A stretch of DNA of 64,000 bases from an uncultured Acidobacteriota bacterium (GCA_963804995.1 CAWDSK010000003.1:1504001-1568000), one strand, 5' to 3'; positions 4,802-56,139 are shown, numbered from the stretch's first letter. Program-made: numbers and translations. The notes: generated from the sequence alone by a model not told the origin.

Positions 4802-4999
4802 GTAGCGCGGACCTCCGCTTTTGAGGTCCGCGGCTCTTCCTGCGAAAAACCGCAGATCTCAACCATGGGGCCTGCCCTGAGATTCGGTGGCATGAATCTG
4901 ATGAAGAACCGCAGATCTCAACCATGGGGCCTGCCCTGAGATTCGGTGGCATGAATCTGATGAAGAACCGCAGACCTCAAAAGCGGAGGTCTGCGCTAC
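4802..4999. repeat. REP family A inverted doublet with internal 59-bp tandem duplication
   Basis: GTAGCGCGGACCTCCGCTTTTGAGGTCCGCGGCTCTTC (4802-4839) and inverted copy (4962-4999); identical 59-bp unit at 4848 and 4907. Confidence 0.85.
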
Positions 5000-13326: not shown

Positions 13327-14775
13327 ATGATGAAACCACGATGCACGCTGCGGCCCATCGCCGCGATGGTTCTTGCCGGGTGGCTTTGGACGGGAGTGGC
13401 GCAGGCCCAAACCACCGTGACCTCCAGCCAGGGGGACCAGCAAGAATTGGCCGTCACCGTTTATAACTCGAATGTCGCCCTGGTGCGCGATGTCCGTCGC
13501 CTGCGGCTGCCCACTGGCACAATCGATTTGCGCTATATGGATATCGCCGCCCAGGTCAATCCTGCCACGGTCCACATTGTTTCCTTGACCGCTCCGAAAG
13601 AACTGAACGTGATCGAGCAGAATTACGAGTACGACCTGCTCAGCCCGGAAAAGCTCTTACAGAAATACGTCGGGAAAGAACTGACGCTGGTGCGGGTTAT
13701 CAGCGAGAACAATTCCACCAAGGAAGTTCCCGTAAAAGCCTTGCTCCTCGCTTACAACCAGGGACCCGTTTGGAAGGTTGGCAATGAGATCATCACCGGC
13801 ATGGGTGCAGACCGCTACATCTTCCCTGACCTGCCGGAAAATCTCTACAGCAAGCCGACGCTGGTCTGGCTGTTGGATAATCGCCGGACCGGTGAGCAGA
13901 CCGTGGAAGCCTCTTACCTGACGAATGCGGTGAATTGGAATGCCGACTACGTGCTCACGGTGCACTCCGACCAGAAGGCTGCGGATTTAAATGGCTGGGT
14001 CACGGTCGTGAACCAAAGCGGCACGGCTTTTCGCAACGCACAACTGCAACTGGTGGCGGGTGAATTGAATCGCGTGCAACCGGAAAATGGCAGGGGGCTA
14101 CGCATCATGGCCTTGAAGGCGGAAAATGCTCCGGCGCCGCAATTCGCCCAAGAAGCGCTTTCCGAATACCACCTCTACACGCTCGAGCGTCATACCGATA
14201 TTCAGAACAACGAAACCAAACAAATCAGCCTGCTGGCTGCGGCCGGCGCCACCGTAGAGAAGGTCTTCGAAGTCGACGGCCAGTCGTATTACTTCCAAAA
14301 CCCCGTGAGCCCCGGGCAGCCGGTGAAGGAACCGGTGAAGGTGCTGATCAAATTTAAGAACGCGGAAGCCAATTCGCTGGGTGTTCCCCTGCCGGCCGGA
14401 ACGGTGCGCGTCTACCAGGGCGATTCCAAAGGCCACCTGCAATTCATCGGCGAGGATCGCATTGACCACACGCCCAAAGACGAAACCGTGAGCCTCCACA
14501 TCGGCAACGCCTTTGACGTGGTGGCGGAACGCAAGCAAACCGACTACCAGCGCCTCGGGCCCCACAATGTGGAAGTTGCCTACGAAATTTCCATCCGCAA
14601 CCACAAACCGGATGCCATTACCGTGCTCGTCAACGAGCCCATTGGCGGCGACTGGTCGATGCTCGATTCGAGTTTCAAGTATGAAAAGACGGCGGCTTTC
14701 GCGGCGCGCTTCACGGTGCCCGTGGCCGCCAACGGTGAGGCATTGCTCAAATATCGCGTGCGGGTTCGCTGGTAA
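13327..14775 (+). CDS. DUF4139 domain secreted protein
   Basis: Signal peptide, VTVYNSNVALVRD, EQNYEYDLL, WNADY, LPAGTVRVY, FIGEDRIDHTP. Confidence 0.85.
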   Translation: MMKPRCTLRPIAAMVLAGWLWTGVAQAQTTVTSSQGDQQELAVTVYNSNVALVRDVRRLRLPTGTIDLRYMDIAAQVNPATVHIVSLTAPKELNVIEQNYEYDLLSPEKLLQKYVGKELTLVRVISENNSTKEVPVKALLLAYNQGPVWKVGNEIITGMGADRYIFPDLPENLYSKPTLVWLLDNRRTGEQTVEASYLTNAVNWNADYVLTVHSDQKAADLNGWVTVVNQSGTAFRNAQLQLVAGELNRVQPENGRGLRIMALKAENAPAPQFAQEALSEYHLYTLERHTDIQNNETKQISLLAAAGATVEKVFEVDGQSYYFQNPVSPGQPVKEPVKVLIKFKNAEANSLGVPLPAGTVRVYQGDSKGHLQFIGEDRIDHTPKDETVSLHIGNAFDVVAERKQTDYQRLGPHNVEVAYEISIRNHKPDAITVLVNEPIGGDWSMLDSSFKYEKTAAFAARFTVPVAANGEALLKYRVRVRW

Positions 14776-14786
14776 AGAGGCGCCGG

Positions 14787-14822
14787 GTGTCAGGTGCCAG
14801 GTGTCGGGTGTCAGGCACCAGG
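14787..14822. repeat. Heptamer tandem repeat (GTGTCAG-like x5)
   Basis: gtgtcag gtgccag gtgtcgg gtgtcag gcaccag. Confidence 0.75.
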
Positions 14823-14828
14823 CTGGCG

Positions 14829-16741
14829 GTTGCGGTAGGGATACCGGTTACCCGGTACCCCCCGCACGGATCCGTACGTGCGCTGGTTAGCGCATACGGC
14901 TCTTATCTCGGATGTGTGGCGGCGAACCGTTGGGATGGCCAAGGATGCACAACGTGCGGAGCAGGCAACCAGCAGGCCGCAAGCTTCCCCAGTCGGTCCC
15001 AGTTGAGGCGGTGGCGTTGACTGCGTTGACGCAGTTGTGTTCGCCACAGTCGGGTCAACCGTTCCCGAAAGATTCGCAGGCGGTCGAGGTTTCCCGGTAC
15101 CGCGTGATAGTTGAAGTAGCCTTGCACGACCGACCGGAGCCATTTACCCGTATCCGCGATGGGATCGTGCCGACGCTGCCGGAGTTGTTGCTTGAGTTCC
15201 TGCAACTTCCCCCGCAGGCGCTTGCTGATCGTCTTCCGCTTCACGGTAAATTGCCCCCTCCGGTTCTTCCCGCTGATATGCGTGAAGCCCAGAAAGTCGA
15301 ACGTCTCCGGCTTACCTTCTCCTCTCCGTTTCCGGTAAAGTTCGGCAAACGGCCCGAACTCGATCCGGCGCGTTTTGTCAGGATGCAGTTCCAATCCAAA
15401 CTTCCCCACCCGCTCCCGGAAATCCTCCAGAAAGCGGTCGGCTTCCGTCTGCGATTGGAATCCAAGGACCGTATCGTCGGCATACCGCACCACGACCACG
15501 TCTCCCCGGGCGTGCTTCTTGCGCCACGCCTGCACCCACAGGTCAAAGACGTAGTGCAGATAGATATTCGCCAGCAGGGGCGAGACCACCGCCCCTTGTG
15601 GCGTACCCATCTCCGTCTCCGACCATTCGCCTTCCTCCCTCACCCCGGCTTTCAGCCATTTCTGGATGAGCCGGAGAATCCGGGGGTCGGCGACGCGATG
15701 CTGCACGAACTTGAGCATCCATTCGTGGGATATCGAATCGAAAAATCCACGAATGTCCGCGTCAAGAACGTAGTTCACGTGCTTCACCGTGAGCGCGTAC
15801 GAGAGCGCGTCCAGCGCTTGATGCTGGCTGCGTCCCGGTCGAAAGCCATACGAGAAGCCCAGAAAGTCTTCCTCGTAAATCGCATTGAGGATGGTGACCA
15901 CGGCCTGTTGGACGATCTTGTCCTCCAGTGCCGCAACCCCCAACGGACGTTGCCGCCCGTCGCCTTTCGGGATATACGCCCTTCGCGAGGGCTTCGCTCG
16001 GAATGCTCCGCGGTGGACCCGGCTGTGCAGATCGACGAGTCGACCTTCCAGCCCGCTTTCATACTCCTGCCACGTCATGCCGTCTACTCCCGGTGCAGCT
16101 TTTCGCTTCAAGGCGTAAAAGCTTTCCCGCAGCAGATCGACCGTTAAGTGGTGGAGCAAGGCCGTGAACTTCATCTCCCTGTGTTCCTTCGCGGCTTTCC
16201 GCACACCCGCGAGTCCCTGGGACACGCGTGCCCCGCTCTGTGTCGGGTGCGTGTTAGGCCAACGGGTGTTCTCCTTGATCAGCGGCCTTCCCTCCTCATT
16301 CTCCGCCAACGGCTTCCCGTCTTTGTTCAAATGATTCATCGGTACTGTTCCGCTGTCCGACTCCTCGAGAGCGTGCAGGCGGGCTGTACGGCCATCGCCT
16401 TTTCCCGCCGTCCGGCCACGATCTACGGCGGCCGGCGCCTCCGAGGTCTCCCGGTTCTCGTGCAGAAAGTGTCTAGGCGTGTCTGGGGTCTACGACTACG
16501 CAGGACTGTGCCGGAACTCGCGTTGGCGTCCCGGCCTCATGTTGCCTTCCGTTTAGTCTGAAAACGTCGGCGTCCTGATTGGACATTTTCGAAGCTCAAT
16601 ACCCAGCCCACCTATTCCCCTGTTTACGCTTCACCGTGCGCCTCACGACGCCCAGCGCAAAACTCGGGGCCGAGTGGATCGCTACTCCTTCCTCGTGAGA
16701 AATTTTCATTCTCTGCTTTCTGCCGGTTTATCCCGGCGCAC
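14829..16741 (-). mobile_element. Complete group II intron (subgroup IIB), 1913 nt, inserted in a REP hairpin
   Basis: 5' GUGCG at 16741; domain V with AGC triad at 14869-14902; domain VI with bulged A 8 nt from the 3' AAC end at 14829; EBS1 CAGACU (16560-16555) pairs with the 5' exon GGUCUG. Confidence 0.93.
14903..16339 (-). CDS. ltrA: Group II intron reverse transcriptase/maturase, no endonuclease domain
   Basis: AAPGVDG, RPLG, FSYGFRPGRS, GTPQG, RYADD, FDFLGF, maturase X domain GYFNYH; no HNH; stop codon abuts domain V. Confidence 0.97.
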   Translation of the reverse strand: MNHLNKDGKPLAENEEGRPLIKENTRWPNTHPTQSGARVSQGLAGVRKAAKEHREMKFTALLHHLTVDLLRESFYALKRKAAPGVDGMTWQEYESGLEGRLVDLHSRVHRGAFRAKPSRRAYIPKGDGRQRPLGVAALEDKIVQQAVVTILNAIYEEDFLGFSYGFRPGRSQHQALDALSYALTVKHVNYVLDADIRGFFDSISHEWMLKFVQHRVADPRILRLIQKWLKAGVREEGEWSETEMGTPQGAVVSPLLANIYLHYVFDLWVQAWRKKHARGDVVVVRYADDTVLGFQSQTEADRFLEDFRERVGKFGLELHPDKTRRIEFGPFAELYRKRRGEGKPETFDFLGFTHISGKNRRGQFTVKRKTISKRLRGKLQELKQQLRQRRHDPIADTGKWLRSVVQGYFNYHAVPGNLDRLRIFRERLTRLWRTQLRQRSQRHRLNWDRLGKLAACWLPAPHVVHPWPSQRFAATHPR

Positions 16742-16875
16742 CAGACCTCCGCCGTTGAGGTCTGCGGTTCTTCCCGTGCAACATGAGCGAATGTACCGTG
16801 GCGCGGCGCAGAGGTGCATGCATGACATTTGCAGTTGGAAGAACCGCGGACCCCAAAACCGGGGGACCGCGCTAC
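16742..16875. repeat. REP family A doublet; the left unit is interrupted by the intron
   Basis: CAGACCTCCGCCGTTGAGGTCTGCGGTTCTTC (16742-16773) and inverted GAAGAACCGCGGACCCCAAAACCGGGGGACCGCGCTAC (16838-16875). Confidence 0.85.
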
Positions 16876-16900
16876 GAAACAGGTCCGCGCCTCCCGTTCG

Positions 16901-16977
16901 CTGCTTACTGCCTTCTGCTTGCTGCCTACTGCCTTCTGCTTACTGCCTACTGCTCTCTGCTTACTGCCTACTGCTCT
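16901..16977. repeat. Heptamer tandem repeat (CTGCCTA/CTGCTTA-like, about 10 units) overlapping a stop codon
   Basis: ctgctta ctgcctt ctgcttg ctgccta ctgcctt ctgctta ctgccta... Confidence 0.85.
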
Positions 16978-18514
16978 GAAGCAAGCGATAACTCACGAAG
17001 GCCAGGCGTTTGCTGTCCGGCGACCAGGAGGGCACATTGATCGTCCCCTGCCCTCCGAAGAGTTTCACCAGGACACGCGGCTCACCGCCCGCCACGGGCA
17101 TGAGGCGCAGCATGACGTCCTGGTCAGCCGGATGCCCCTTTACCGTCTTGTCGTAGGAAAGGAACACGAGCCATTTTCCGTCGGGTGAAGGATGTGCGAA
17201 CCAGTTGGCGTAGTCGTCGCGGGTCACTTGCTCCTGCGCGCTTCCATCCGGGTGCATGCGCCAGATCTGCATCCAGCCGGTGCGCTCGGAGTTGAAGTAA
17301 ATGTATTGGCCATCGGGCGAATAATCCGGCCCATCGTCGAGACCCGGCGCATCCGTCAATCGCTGTGCTTCACCCCCCTCCACAGGAATCGAGTAGATAT
17401 CGCCGTTGCCGCCTCGAATCCCCGCAAACGCCAGCGTCTTGCCATCCGGAGACCAGCCGTGCCAGTAAGAGGGGCCCGTCTCCGTAACCTGCCGAGGCTT
17501 TCCCCCGCCTGCCGGAAGCACATAAACGAAGGGAATGTGATTCGGCGAGTGGGTAATCGCCAACCACTTGCCGTCCGGCGAGAAGCCGTGATCATTGTTG
17601 CAGTGGATGGCATCCCCGGTATCGAGCAGGCGTGGTTCGCCACCTTTAATCGGCACGGTATAGAGTTTCCCCTCACTATTAAAGAGCAGAAACTTTCCGT
17701 CGCGCGACCAGTTGGGCGCCTCAAAGCGTTTCTGTGCGTGATAGACGACGCGCCGCTTGTGCCCGTCAAGGGAGATGATTTCCAGGCGGCTTTCGACAGG
17801 CTGCGGGTGGGCGTGTTCCTCCTTGCCGCCCAGCACGTTCACATTCGAAAACACGGCCTCCTCCTCGGCGGCGGCGTCATGCGCACATACGGCCAGGCCC
17901 ACATAGACAGGGTCATGCAGAGGAACTTCCACCGTACCGGCCAGCTCGAATTGCCCTCCAGCAGGCGCGGCCCAAAGCGAAAAGGTGTTCCCCAGCCGAA
18001 CCAACCGAATGGTTTCCGGATTCGAGATCTTCGACTGAATCTCCTGGGTCGTTCCACCTTCCGTCAGGCGATATTGCAGGGCCGTGAGCCCGCTGCCGTG
18101 CACGACCAAGTCAGCATAGGGGGCGCTTGGACCCAAACCTTGCCGCACCATCCATCCTGCCTTGCGATGGGCATTGCCGCCGGGATGAGGAAATTTCACC
18201 TGGGTGGTCAAGGTCAGGTCTCCCGTGGCCTGCCGCCACAGGAAGTGGAAAGCATCCGTCTCCTTCCACATGTTGGCTCCGCCTCCGGTAATGTGGTACT
18301 CACCGTGTGCAGCATCGAAAGTTGTCGAACCTGCGAGGAGCGGCCCTCCGACGTCGGATTCGCCTTCGAAGTCGCCGAGTGAGGCGGGCGATGCAGCGAT
18401 CAAGGTCGCGAAGAGGATGCACACGGCAAGCGCGAGGAGCCGCCAGACGCCTCGTGGCGGTTCCAGATGGTTCGCGCGCTGGATGCGAATCGAAAAGCGA
18501 TGCAACTGAATCAT
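16961..18514 (-). CDS. Secreted TolB-like PD40 beta-propeller protein with N-terminal ConA/DUF1349-like domain
   Basis: [52 protein letters not shown]-domain [16 protein letters not shown]. Confidence 0.85.
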
Positions 18515-18575
18515 GACGCCCCCAGTCTTGAGCAAAAAGATAGTCGAAAGGCCAGTGGCTTGCAACCGTGGCGCG

Positions 18576-18864: not shown

Positions 18865-18900
18865 GTGGCGCGAAGCGATGCTCCGGAGTCAAGAACCCTC

Positions 18901-18909
18901 TGCTATAAT
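18901..18909 (+). promoter_or_regulatory. Extended -10 element upstream of argS
   Basis: TGCTATAAT about 100 nt before the probable TTG start. Confidence 0.5.
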
Positions 18910-19011
18910 CTGTCGTTTATCGCAGCGCAAGCGCTTCTGACTGTAGGGGCGCCATTCGTGACGGCTTGGCGGTGCGGCATCGAGCCGCCGTCGCAACGGG
19001 GGAGCAGCTTC

Positions 19012-20998
19012 TTGTTACCGGAGATCCAACAAAAGATTCGCTCGAAATTTGTAGAGGCTGTGCGCGAGGTCTTCCATGTGGAAGTAGCCTCTCCCGCGCT
19101 CGTTACTCCGCCCAATCTGGAGATGGGTGACATCTCGCTCGCCGCTTGTTTTGAGCTGGCGAAGCAGTTGCGGCAGGCGCCTCGCAAGATCGCAGAGCAA
19201 CTCATGGCGCCCCTCTCCGCCGTCGAAGGCATCGAGCGCGTGACCGTGGCCGGGGCCGGCTATCTGAATTTCCATCTCCAGCGCGCCCAGGCCGCGGCGC
19301 GCCTTTTCGACCGGCGCAGTTCCCCGCCCACCGCGCAGACCAGCGCGCACGGGAAAATCCTGGTCGAACACACCAGTATCAATCCCAACAAGGCAGCGCA
19401 CATCGGCCACCTGCGCAACGCTGTTTTGGGGGATACGTTTGTTCGCCTGCTGCGCTTTCAGTCCGACCTCGTGGAAGTCGAAAACTACATTGACAACACC
19501 GGCGTGCAGGTTGCAGACGTCGTCGTAGGATTCCTGCATTTGCAGAAGAAGACTTTGGCGGAAGTTGAGGCGTTGACCCACGACGCTTCGGTTCGCTTCG
19601 ACTATTACTGCTGGGACCTCTACGCGCGAGTTTTCCAGTGGTACGAAGAAGATAAGGCGGCGCTCGCCCTGCGCTCACAAGCCCTGAAAGATATCGAGGA
19701 AGGCCACGGTGAGCCCGCCGCCATGGCCGAGGTGATCTCCACCGCCATCGTGCGCGCCCACCTCAAGACGATGCTGCGAATCAACATCCAATACGACGTA
19801 TTGGTTCAGGAAAGTGAGATTCTTAAACTCAACTTCTGGAAATCCGCGTTCGAGTTGCTGAAGAAGAATGGCGCGGTGCGCTTTGAGGAGAATGGCAAGA
19901 ACGCCGGTTGCTGGGTCATGGATCTGGCAGAAACTTCCGCAGAAAGCGAACCGGCGGATGGCGATGATATCAAGATTATAGTACGTTCGAACGGCACCGT
20001 GACCTATGTTGGCAAGGACATCGCCTACCACCTTTGGAAATTCGCCTTGCTCGACAAGGATTTTGGATACGCGGCCTTCCACCGTTATCCGGACGGCCAC
20101 GGCGTTTGGCGGACCACCGTCGCAGGCGAAGCTGACGCGCCGCCCTTCGGCCACGCGAGCGCAGCCTACGCCGTCATCGATACGCGCCAGTCCTACCTTC
20201 AGAACATCGTCAAAGCCGCATTCCACGCCCTGGGTTACCACGAGCGCGCCCGTAACCTCCACCATTTCGCATACGAGGTGGTCGGACTCACGCCCGTTTG
20301 CGCGGAGGAAATGGGAATTACGCTCAACCCGGATGACCGCGAACGCTCTTACGTGGAGGTTTCCGGACGCAAGGGGCAGGGCGTCAAGGCGGACGACCTG
20401 ATCGACACCCTCATCGCGCGCGCCTCAGAAGAAGTGGGCTCACGCGGCATGACCCAGGATCCTGTTCGAGCAACAGGACTACGCGCGCAAAATCGCTGTG
20501 GCGGCGCTGCGCTACTTCCTCCTGAAGTTCACGCGCCGCGTCATCATCGCCTTCGACTTCAAGGAGGCGCTGGCCTTCGAAGGTGAGACCGGACCTTACC
20601 TGCAATATAGCGTGGTGCGGGCGCGAAATATCTTTCGTAAATTCCAGGAGTCGCACCCGGAGTTCCAAGCCGCGGACCTGCCACGCACCTTCACTTCCGA
20701 ACAGTCACAGGGATTTTTCCGGGGAACGGATGGCTTGGCGTTTTGGGAGCTAACGTTGCTCGCCGGCCAGTTGGAGATAGTCGTAGACCAGGCCATCACC
20801 TCTGAAGAGCCTGCGGTGGTGGCGAAGTACGCCTTCCGCCTCGCCCAGGCCTTCAACAATTTCTATCATCACTTCCACATCCTGAGCGAAACGGATCCCG
20901 CCCGCCAGCAATTCCTGCTTTACCTTGTCTACCTCACGGAACGCACGCTCAGCCTGACCGTCGAACAAATGGGCATGGGAATTCCCGAACGCATGTAG
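19012..20998 (+). CDS. argS: Arginine--tRNA ligase with +1 frameshift near 20465-20467 (probably a sequencing error)
   Basis: GYLNF, VEHTSINPNKAAHIGHLRN, VSGRKG. The second frame continues EQQDYARKIAVAALRY...FEGETGPYLQY...PERM. Confidence 0.95.
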
Positions 20999-43342: not shown

Positions 43343-43688
43343 GTAGCGCGGTCCCCCGTCTTTTGAGGGGTCCGCGGTTCTTCGTTTGCAAAACCCGCAA
43401 ATCCCCAAAATACGGGCGGCGTCTTTGCCACGATACATTCGCTCAATTGGCATAGGAAGAGCCGCAGACCTCAACAGCGGAGGTCCGCGCTACCCTCGTG
43501 CATGGAATTCCATCGTGTTGTGCACAGAGCGAGCGGGCAGGGTTCGTAGCGCGGTCCCCCGTCTTTGGGGTCCGCGGTACTTCATTTGGAAAACCCGCAA
43601 ACGTTAACGACATGGGCCGGCCTTCGGAATCGGGTTCGTGACTCTCCCGAAGAACCGCAGACCCCAACGGCGGGGGTATGTGGCAGCC
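43343..43688. repeat. Two adjacent REP family A doublets
   Basis: GTAGCGCGGTCCCCCG... at 43343 and 43546; GAAGAGCCGCAGACCTCAACAGCGGAGGTCCGCGCTAC at 43456-43493; variant ending ...GGCAGCC at about 43649-43688. Confidence 0.85.
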
Positions 43689-56101: not shown

Positions 56102-56139
56102 GAAGAGCCGCGGACCTCAACAGCGGAGGTCCGCGCTAC
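56102..56139. repeat. REP family A unit
   Basis: GAAGAGCCGCGGACCTCAACAGCGGAGGTCCGCGCTAC. Confidence 0.85.

Follow-up and report, generated by a model that had tools for sequence, protein, structure and literature searches.

A class E-like group II intron inserted at a fixed site in a RAYT-associated REP hairpin of an uncultured Acidobacteriota bacterium

In a 64,000-nucleotide stretch of the genome of an uncultured Acidobacteriota bacterium (below, the window), a group II intron interrupts an intergenic repeat of the REP kind. The locus raises the question of whether the intron homes to the repeat as such, and which bases would guide it there. A reading made from the sequence alone (the sequence-only reading) had proposed that an endonuclease-less IIB intron, with its EBS1 matched to the repeat, uses a multicopy intergenic REP as its homing site, and this proposal is supported by the analysis of the copies in the whole genome, as all 37 of those with both flanks scorable occupy such a site.

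The intron and the repeat that it interrupts

The features of the locus are collected in Table 1. Both intron ends are identical among all full-length copies (in one nearly full copy a contig end has removed the first 9 bases), and the splice junctions are thereby fixed at 16741 and 14829 of the minus strand, where the sequence-only reading had placed them. The 5' exon ends with GGTCTG and the 3' exon starts with CGCCAGCC. The sequence has the GUGYG...AY ends, the domain I core, domains V and VI and the RT/maturase ORF in domain IV of a group II (IIB) intron. The encoded protein scored 347.8 bits against TIGR04416 (cut-off 300) and matched RVT_1 only in Pfam, with 40 residues between the end of the TIGR04416 match and the end of the ORF. 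The predicted fold of domain I contains the stem-loop CGUUU-UCAGACU-AAACG, whose EBS1 pairs with the exon end GGUCUG at 6/6 positions (one G-U), in agreement with the EBS1 first suggested; U at 16561 (delta), directly before EBS1, is invariant. Of the other guides that were to be sought in domain I, EBS2 was found through covariation among relatives (see below), while EBS3 showed no covariation. In the Rfam search no RF00029 match was listed for domain V at the gathering score. The A at 14836, in a predicted UA bulge, is a candidate for the branch point. The RNA runs were uninformative on expression: 0.21 of the words occurred in the best of them, and the contigs at 85% were fragments of relatives, none of which spanned the stretch or showed an exon-exon joint.

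Table 1. Features of the window around the intron, and loci of two groups of relatives
Feature	Position or loci	Strand	Remarks
DUF4139 gene	13327..14775	+	adjoins queA in relatives; here beside the intron 3' end
3' exon, B-type REP end	14821..14828	-	in relatives belongs to the queA-DUF4139 locus
Group II intron	14829..16741	-	1913 nt; GUGCG start, AC end; one of 40 near-identical genomic copies
Domain VI	14829..14867	-	predicted fold; A at 14836, the eighth base counted back from the end, as candidate for the bulged branch A
Domain V	14869..14902	-	AGC triad; predicted fold as expected
RT/maturase ORF	14903..16339	-	478 aa, YADD; no endonuclease domain detected; TIGR04416 and RVT_1
Domain I core	16486..16706	-	Rfam RF02005 group-II-D1D4-6, 173 bits, gathering 49
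Candidate EBS3 G	16549	-	coordination loop; no covariation support
EBS1 CAGACU	16555..16560	-	same in all 39 aligned copies; predicted fold
EBS2 core UGU	16583..16585	-	pairs with target -9 to -11; possible extension to 16581; covariation in relatives
5' exon, left part of target REP (A type)	16742..16773	-	IBS1 16747-16742; IBS2 16752-16750, where the hairpin loop ends on its 3' side
Partner REP, GTAG-tagged, GGTCCG type	16838..16875	-	inverted doublet with the target REP
TolB-like beta-propeller gene	16961..18565	-	upstream of the intron; then phoH-like locus in 3/7 relatives
Empty GGTCTG REP of the target family, intact	4962..4999	+	disfavoured strand
Empty REP, GGTCCG right arm, uncompensated left arm	43456..43493	+	sequence
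Empty stem-compensated GGTCCG REP	56102..56139	+	sequence
Sister introns at the GAAAACAAA-core repeat	L019, L023, L032, L034, L039, L040, L051-L058, L062		
Relatives with lengthened 5' ends	L017, L020-L022, L026, L029, L030, L037, L038, L043, L062, L063		

Comparison of the protein and of the RNA suggests a class E-like IIB intron without endonuclease, likely a member of class E. The RT/maturase shares 57% identity with the protein of a disrupted intron on Sinorhizobium meliloti pRmeGR4b versus 35% with that of the intact intron there; the disrupted intron matches RF02005, as the window intron does, and the intact one RF01999. A disrupted class E intron is described on pRmeGR4b (PMC5894124), and it is on the strength of this source that we took the disrupted intron to be S.me.I4. 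As to two further traits of the class, a stem-loop fitting alpha' at the end of the domain Id stem-loop aligns here to RF02005, and the predicted fold of domain V has a 4-nt loop in place of the 5-nt loop of class E.

The 5' flank of the intron (16875-16742) is an inverted REP doublet, and the REP stem motif occurs 12 times in the window (at most two mismatches) against 0.72 expected. The target is predicted to fold into a 10-bp stem (-11.6 kcal/mol, z -4.7) with positions -9 to -15 as a 7-nt loop, and the mirror strand is predicted to fold as well (-12.3 kcal/mol). Genome-wide, 88 of 275 tag-side sites lie in strict inverted doublets, the commonest pairing being one GGTCTG and one GGTCCG half. 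RAYT genes that score above the cut-off of NF047646 (the NCBIfam REP-associated tyrosine transposase) carry these repeats in their flanks in inverted orientation, the target types at L011 and L012 and related types at L008 and L010; because of this, the repeat can be called a true REP. By its sequence and genomic setting it is a RAYT-associated REP, that is a tagged imperfect palindrome, intergenic, present in hundreds of copies and in inverted doublets. GGTCTG sites within called genes or without context amount to 6/121 on polar contigs (outside the intron-bearing ones) and to at most 8 of the 142 in all, 7 of them genic. At two RAYT genes (L011:1246-1953, L012:1390-1959) a REP beside the gene is occupied by an intron copy, with possible consequences for the expression or activity of the RAYT.

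Four further REPs of the window had been listed as intact units of the target type. This holds for the one at 4962-4999, while those at 43456-43493 and 56102-56139 are of the GGTCCG type, and the right arm of the one at 43649-43688 is degenerate. The rejoined window site is itself a hybrid, of the A type in its left half and of the B type in its right. Short arrays of tandem repeats of about 7 bp lie at 16900-16975 and 14781-14820, on either side of the intron-REP block and beside the stop codons of both flanking genes.

Copies of the intron and occupancy of the sites

The whole genome yielded 40 matches of >99% identity, of which 39 are complete or almost so and one is truncated where its contig ends. 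Three of the 40 copies lack one flank; when the flanks of the remaining 37 were tabulated, as the sequence-only reading had proposed, 37/37 fell at the same position of a REP hairpin. Flanks farther out differ at nearly every copy, and the REP halves around the copies vary in type (A or B), in loop and in hexamer (three of these), with an intron of >99% identity between them. A copy pair in a 2133-bp tandem duplicate at the end of C6 is possibly an assembly duplicate, and intron copies coincide with four contig ends. Among seven shared SNPs (intron columns 58-1705), all four gametes occur for 20 of the 21 pairs, even at distances of 47-52 bases, a mosaic that fits gene conversion or a polishing artefact of multi-mapped reads. 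The same genome contains partial sister introns (C6:842676, C2:652257, C1:441116, C1:206552) and other RT families of 32-37% identity in several copies each (C1, C3, C4, C5, C6, C9).

With the copies removed in silico, the genome has 5172 sites at which C follows an EBS1-like hexamer, and all of these were scored. Tag-side hairpin sites were filled in 37 of 275 cases, versus 0/435 for mirror-strand sites and 0/4462 for non-hairpin sites; since the tag side was defined from the 3' flanks at occupied sites, the weight lies with the mirror and non-hairpin counts. On the contigs whose polarity was assigned from weak GC skew, KOPS counts and dnaA (C2:123925), with C1, C7 and C9 excluded, tag-side sites were filled at 30/113 on the G-rich strand, i.e., the lagging-strand template, and at 1/125 on the other (Fisher p 6.5e-10), the REP sites themselves being evenly stranded (113 vs 125). 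On the favoured strand 26 of 52 GGTCTG sites were filled, that is half of the best sites, against 3/52 of the sites mismatched to EBS1, and none of the 72 mirror REP sites. The site 4988-4993, named by the sequence-only reading as an example of an open target, lies on the disfavoured strand. A transcriptional origin of the strand bias was rejected, the direction of the upstream gene being without effect (14/28 vs 8/20).

Among favoured-strand sites that combine IBS1, IBS2 and C at +1, 0 of 13 intergenic non-hairpin ones (an intergenic status resting on rough gene calls) were filled versus 22/48 REP sites (p 0.002), and therefore a further site determinant beyond base pairing is likely; the candidates are A at -14/-15, the stretch from +2 to +5, and the hairpin fold. 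The occupied sites carry A at -14 in 34/37 and at -15 in 35/37, and positions -12 to -14 are A-rich also in relatives with unrelated targets. Base -10 is C in 36/37 occupied sites versus 3/147 mirror sites. Within favoured-strand REPs a full IBS2 was without clear effect on occupancy (22/42 vs 4/10). The site of one sister copy, L060, has no hairpin left arm, which favours a reading by sequence over a reading by fold.

The GGTCCG variant of the REP had been suggested to be an escape allele. Its occupancy is about six times less than that of GGTCTG (4/113 vs 32/142), as the mismatch to EBS1 predicts. We reject the suggestion on several observations: a compensating left arm accompanies 101 of the 113 GGTCCG REPs and only 2 are uncompensated, the variant occurs in 24/29 genomes of the genus, it is still filled, and it serves a sister intron of its own with EBS1 CGGACU. 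GGTCCG REPs are often the partner half of a doublet. They are present also in G009, G011 and G014, three genomes with no intron match in fragmented, 85-98% complete assemblies in which copies may be missed. The variant predates the intron burst, whose copies differ from one another at a few bases.

Among A-type sites, an A-left/B-right hybrid is found at 2/23 filled and 1/172 empty ones. The DNA that follows the DUF4139 gene in 15 of 19 loci of relatives maps in the own genome to C6:499.7-500.7 kb, which is queA (the remaining 4/19 gave no hit) and forms the 5' flank of another intron copy, C6:497772-499684 (L116); the DNA after the TolB-like gene in 3/7 relatives maps to the 3' flank of that same copy. 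Its site is B-left and A-right, complementary to the window site. Judged by the non-native flank pairs and the complementary hybrid sites, the two copies appear to have exchanged flanks. We lean slightly towards a real rearrangement over a misassembly. A crossover between copies on opposite replichores would fit the swap and would keep polarity; in G020 both loci run in the same direction 480 kb apart, an arrangement from which a crossover would give a deletion instead. Since contig ends at intron copies betray assembly trouble, the join could also be a misjoin. A second hybrid site, C9:287203, has flanks that are non-adjacent in five relatives, and no reciprocal intron-linked partner was found for it. 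Farther along the window, an ArgRS-like gene (18865-20998; the name was given by eye on the translation) is divided between two reading frames, the break lying at about 20500-20586 and being probably a sequencing frameshift.

Guide bases and targets among the relatives

The 5' domain of the intron was matched in 60 of 133 genomes of the family, the own genome counted. From 70 loci 67 rows were parsed; 13 were dropped for false internal starts or less than 16 bases of exon, and 6 further ones because of an unreliable EBS1 register (five of G045) or as a twintron copy (one), so that 48 rows representing 29 EBS1/EBS2 types were kept. One of the 29 types, L035, comes from an unpublished genome (G114), and no claim hangs on it. 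EBS1 and its target form 150/174 Watson-Crick pairs over the 29 types versus 70 when permuted. For EBS2, i.e., the three bases after the GAAA-A motif, facing target positions -9 to -11 across a 2-nt linker as in RmInt2, the count is 67/87 versus 28 permuted (maximum 46 in 10000), and five shifted registers gave 23-32 pairs, a control that preserves the relatedness of these introns, which are kin and not independent. EBS2 positions 4-5 are mostly unpaired. The covariation lends comparative support to a role of EBS2 in DNA targeting. For EBS3 it is absent among the relatives, in which +1 is C 14 times, G 6, A 4 and T 2 under a constant G; in the own genome this G would fit C at +1.

Relatives with EBS1 CAGACU or CAGACC lie in the same REP (L016, L017, L020, L024, L026, L059), those of G017 with CGGACU in GGTCCG-type REPs (L018, L046-L048), and the CAGAGU introns (L029, L063) in a third REP type. 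Sister introns with at least five EBS1 versions, both ORF-containing and ORF-less, are inserted just after a dispersed GAAAACAAA-core repeat, which has 61-152 exact copies in each of five genomes and 107 looser matches in the own genome. A sister clade with EBS1 UGGCUA (L041, L042, L078, L080 and C5:460087 of the own genome) is found at another repeat, with 1-39 exact copies in five genomes, and for several EBS types the target was matched to no repeat. On comparison of these loci, the same guide bases have been retuned in the relatives, either to variants of the REP or to different repeat families. The domain I tree with masked guides is poorly resolved (10/38 branches starred, bootstrap unsettled); it contains one supported sister pair with different target families and gives no order of events.

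Many relatives are ORF-less and 633-655 nt long, and at L078 two ORF-less copies stand head to tail. A number of relatives (Table 1) have lengthened 5' ends, GAAAGCG, GTAGCG or GTTGCG in place of GTGCG, with EBS1 pairing that stops just before the first G.

Homing into REPs and comparison with known systems

Considering the occupancy and covariation data, we regard the intron as probably a recently expanded class E-like element that retrohomes in the ordinary endonuclease-less way into a RAYT-associated REP. The site, the strand and the guide sequences are shown by the copies and their relatives, with strong comparative support; the steps of the mechanism are inferred. A particle of spliced RNA and protein would meet the single-stranded lagging-strand template at the replication fork, where -1 to -6 would be bound by EBS1 and -9 to -11 by the short EBS2. 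Some further flanking bases are probably read by the protein, for instance the A-rich stretch near -12 to -15 or +2 to +5. The RNA would then reverse-splice two bases inside the stem foot, and the nascent lagging strand would serve as the primer for reverse transcription. IBS1 occurs on both strands of the palindrome, of which only the one with the right loop and flanks would be used. Relatives would gain other repeats through changes in the same guide bases, and the many identical copies may later act as recombination substrates. Because the REP is intergenic and has hundreds of copies, about 40 intron copies would come at little cost. The same lagging-strand bias, and this pathway, are reported for the endonuclease-less class D introns RmInt1 and RmInt2 (PMC5894124, PMC4615759).

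The hairpin, folded on the single-stranded lagging template, could itself be part of the signal, the IBS2 at the 3' end of the loop acting as a toehold, EBS1 mimicking the left arm and invading the stem, and the protein perhaps holding the hairpin, in a class C-like manner with another geometry. All 37 sites are indeed hairpins, none of the 13 matched intergenic non-hairpin sites is used, and in the fold the loop above the 10-bp stem coincides with -9 to -15; however, IBS1 is hidden in the folded stem, the mirror strand folds and yet remained empty on the favoured strand, the L060 site lacks the left arm, and a repeat used by other sisters shows, by eye only, no comparable hairpin in its 42 upstream bases, which makes a role of the fold rather unlikely. 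When A at -14 is required, only 3 intergenic non-hairpin controls are left, so that sequence and structure are inseparable here. That not all copies arose by homing, but some by RAYT-driven REP transposition, gene conversion, duplication or inflation in the assembly, could appeal to the presence of RAYTs and REP doublets, to the C6 duplicate and the four contig ends at copies, and to the four-gamete SNP mosaic. We consider it very improbable, given that the REP halves differ around a nearly identical intron, that the outer flanks are distinct at nearly every copy, and that the 30-to-1 strand bias is absent from the REP sites. Still less credible is a selection filter, by which insertions would strike many hexamers and survive only in harmless REPs: most non-REP matches are genic (384/494 on the favoured strand), as it would need, but 0/110 intergenic non-hairpin sites with GGTCTG before C on that strand are filled, and the 435 empty mirror REP sites are equally harmless.

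Beyond ordinary homing into the REP, the class E lineage of this family might be a specialist parasite of non-autonomous intergenic repeats, with the 3-nt EBS2 as toehold on the loop of a folded single-stranded REP and an EBS1 that opens the stem by mimicry of the left arm, which hops between repeat families by a few guide bases and rearranges the chromosome in bursts; we hold this view to be doubtful. Were it true, plain homing, terminators and attC would be joined by a fourth mode of targeting, and bursts would turn short REPs into identical 1.9-kb repeats, as at the window copy.

A review of 2015 lists three target specificities of bacterial group II introns, namely homing sites, terminators and attC (PMC4424553). 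No description of REP homing by a group II intron was found in the searchable literature, although intron flank tables in supplements or subscription papers could hold cases; the words 'palindrom' and 'repeat' are absent from the main texts of PMC8919778 and PMC7306698. Relative to the papers cited here, the genome offers a first test case for class E mobility, in which filled and empty sites form a natural series. REP homing links two mobile-DNA systems, group II introns and RAYT-associated REPs, and shows a sequence-guided intron reaching class C-like copy numbers without harm to genes. The genome also provides comparative evidence that an EBS2 found dispensable for splicing serves to target DNA. 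With retargeted guides on a near-constant scaffold, the family amounts to a natural library, of use for gene targeting in a group that is poorly tractable. A real flank swap would mean that chromosomes, too, are rearranged by intron bursts in REPs.

The introns of Thermosynechococcus elongatus belong to the CL lineage and have diversified EBS sequences. They have in common with the window intron the proliferation within one genome, ORF-less riders and insertion into non-essential mobile DNA, but rely on heat-driven strand opening and target introns or IS elements rather than REPs (PMC2882425). A fixed REP position, with a REP restored when the flanks are joined, is known also for ISPsy8, ISPa11, ISPpu9 and ISPpu10, which are moved by DNA transposases with recognition by protein, and a Pseudomonas putida group II intron is REP-associated in only 2/9 copies in a table of the same paper (PMC1525189). 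Class C introns at terminators and attC likewise combine an intergenic hairpin context with high copy number; they have an EBS1 of 3-4 bp, no EBS2 and a stem-loop upstream of IBS1 (PMC4424553, PMC7923331, PMC7306698). The window intron differs from them in its 6-bp EBS1, its EBS2, an IBS1 inside the stem, and a protein and RNA that match class E, and on covariation and fold we reject its membership in hairpin-targeting IIC; the analogy with IIC introns drawn at first is a loose one.

With class E (IIE) on pRmeGR4b it shares RF02005, the lack of an endonuclease domain and the use of EBS1 and EBS2, while the class E passages of PMC5894124, PMC3753933 and PMC3552965 state neither a REP target nor a mobility pathway. 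The EBS2 of class E was found dispensable for splicing in vitro, and a role in homing was suggested (Nagy 2013); the EBS2 of the window intron differs in that it covaries with DNA targets and comprises only about 3 bp. The class D introns RmInt1 and RmInt2 of S. meliloti are likewise endonuclease-less, biased to the lagging-strand template and directed at a multicopy repeated target, RmInt2 homing to the inverted repeats of ISRm17 with a 2-nt linker and a tolerated EBS2 mismatch (PMC4615759, PMC5894124). By analogy, the window intron may resemble RmInt2 in its working, with EBS pairing as the guide, a link to the fork and a repeated target. RmInt1 and RmInt2, each present in 7-10 copies in strain GR4, target IS elements, whereas the window intron, of another class, is inserted in a non-autonomous intergenic REP in about 40 copies and has relatives retuned to several repeat families.
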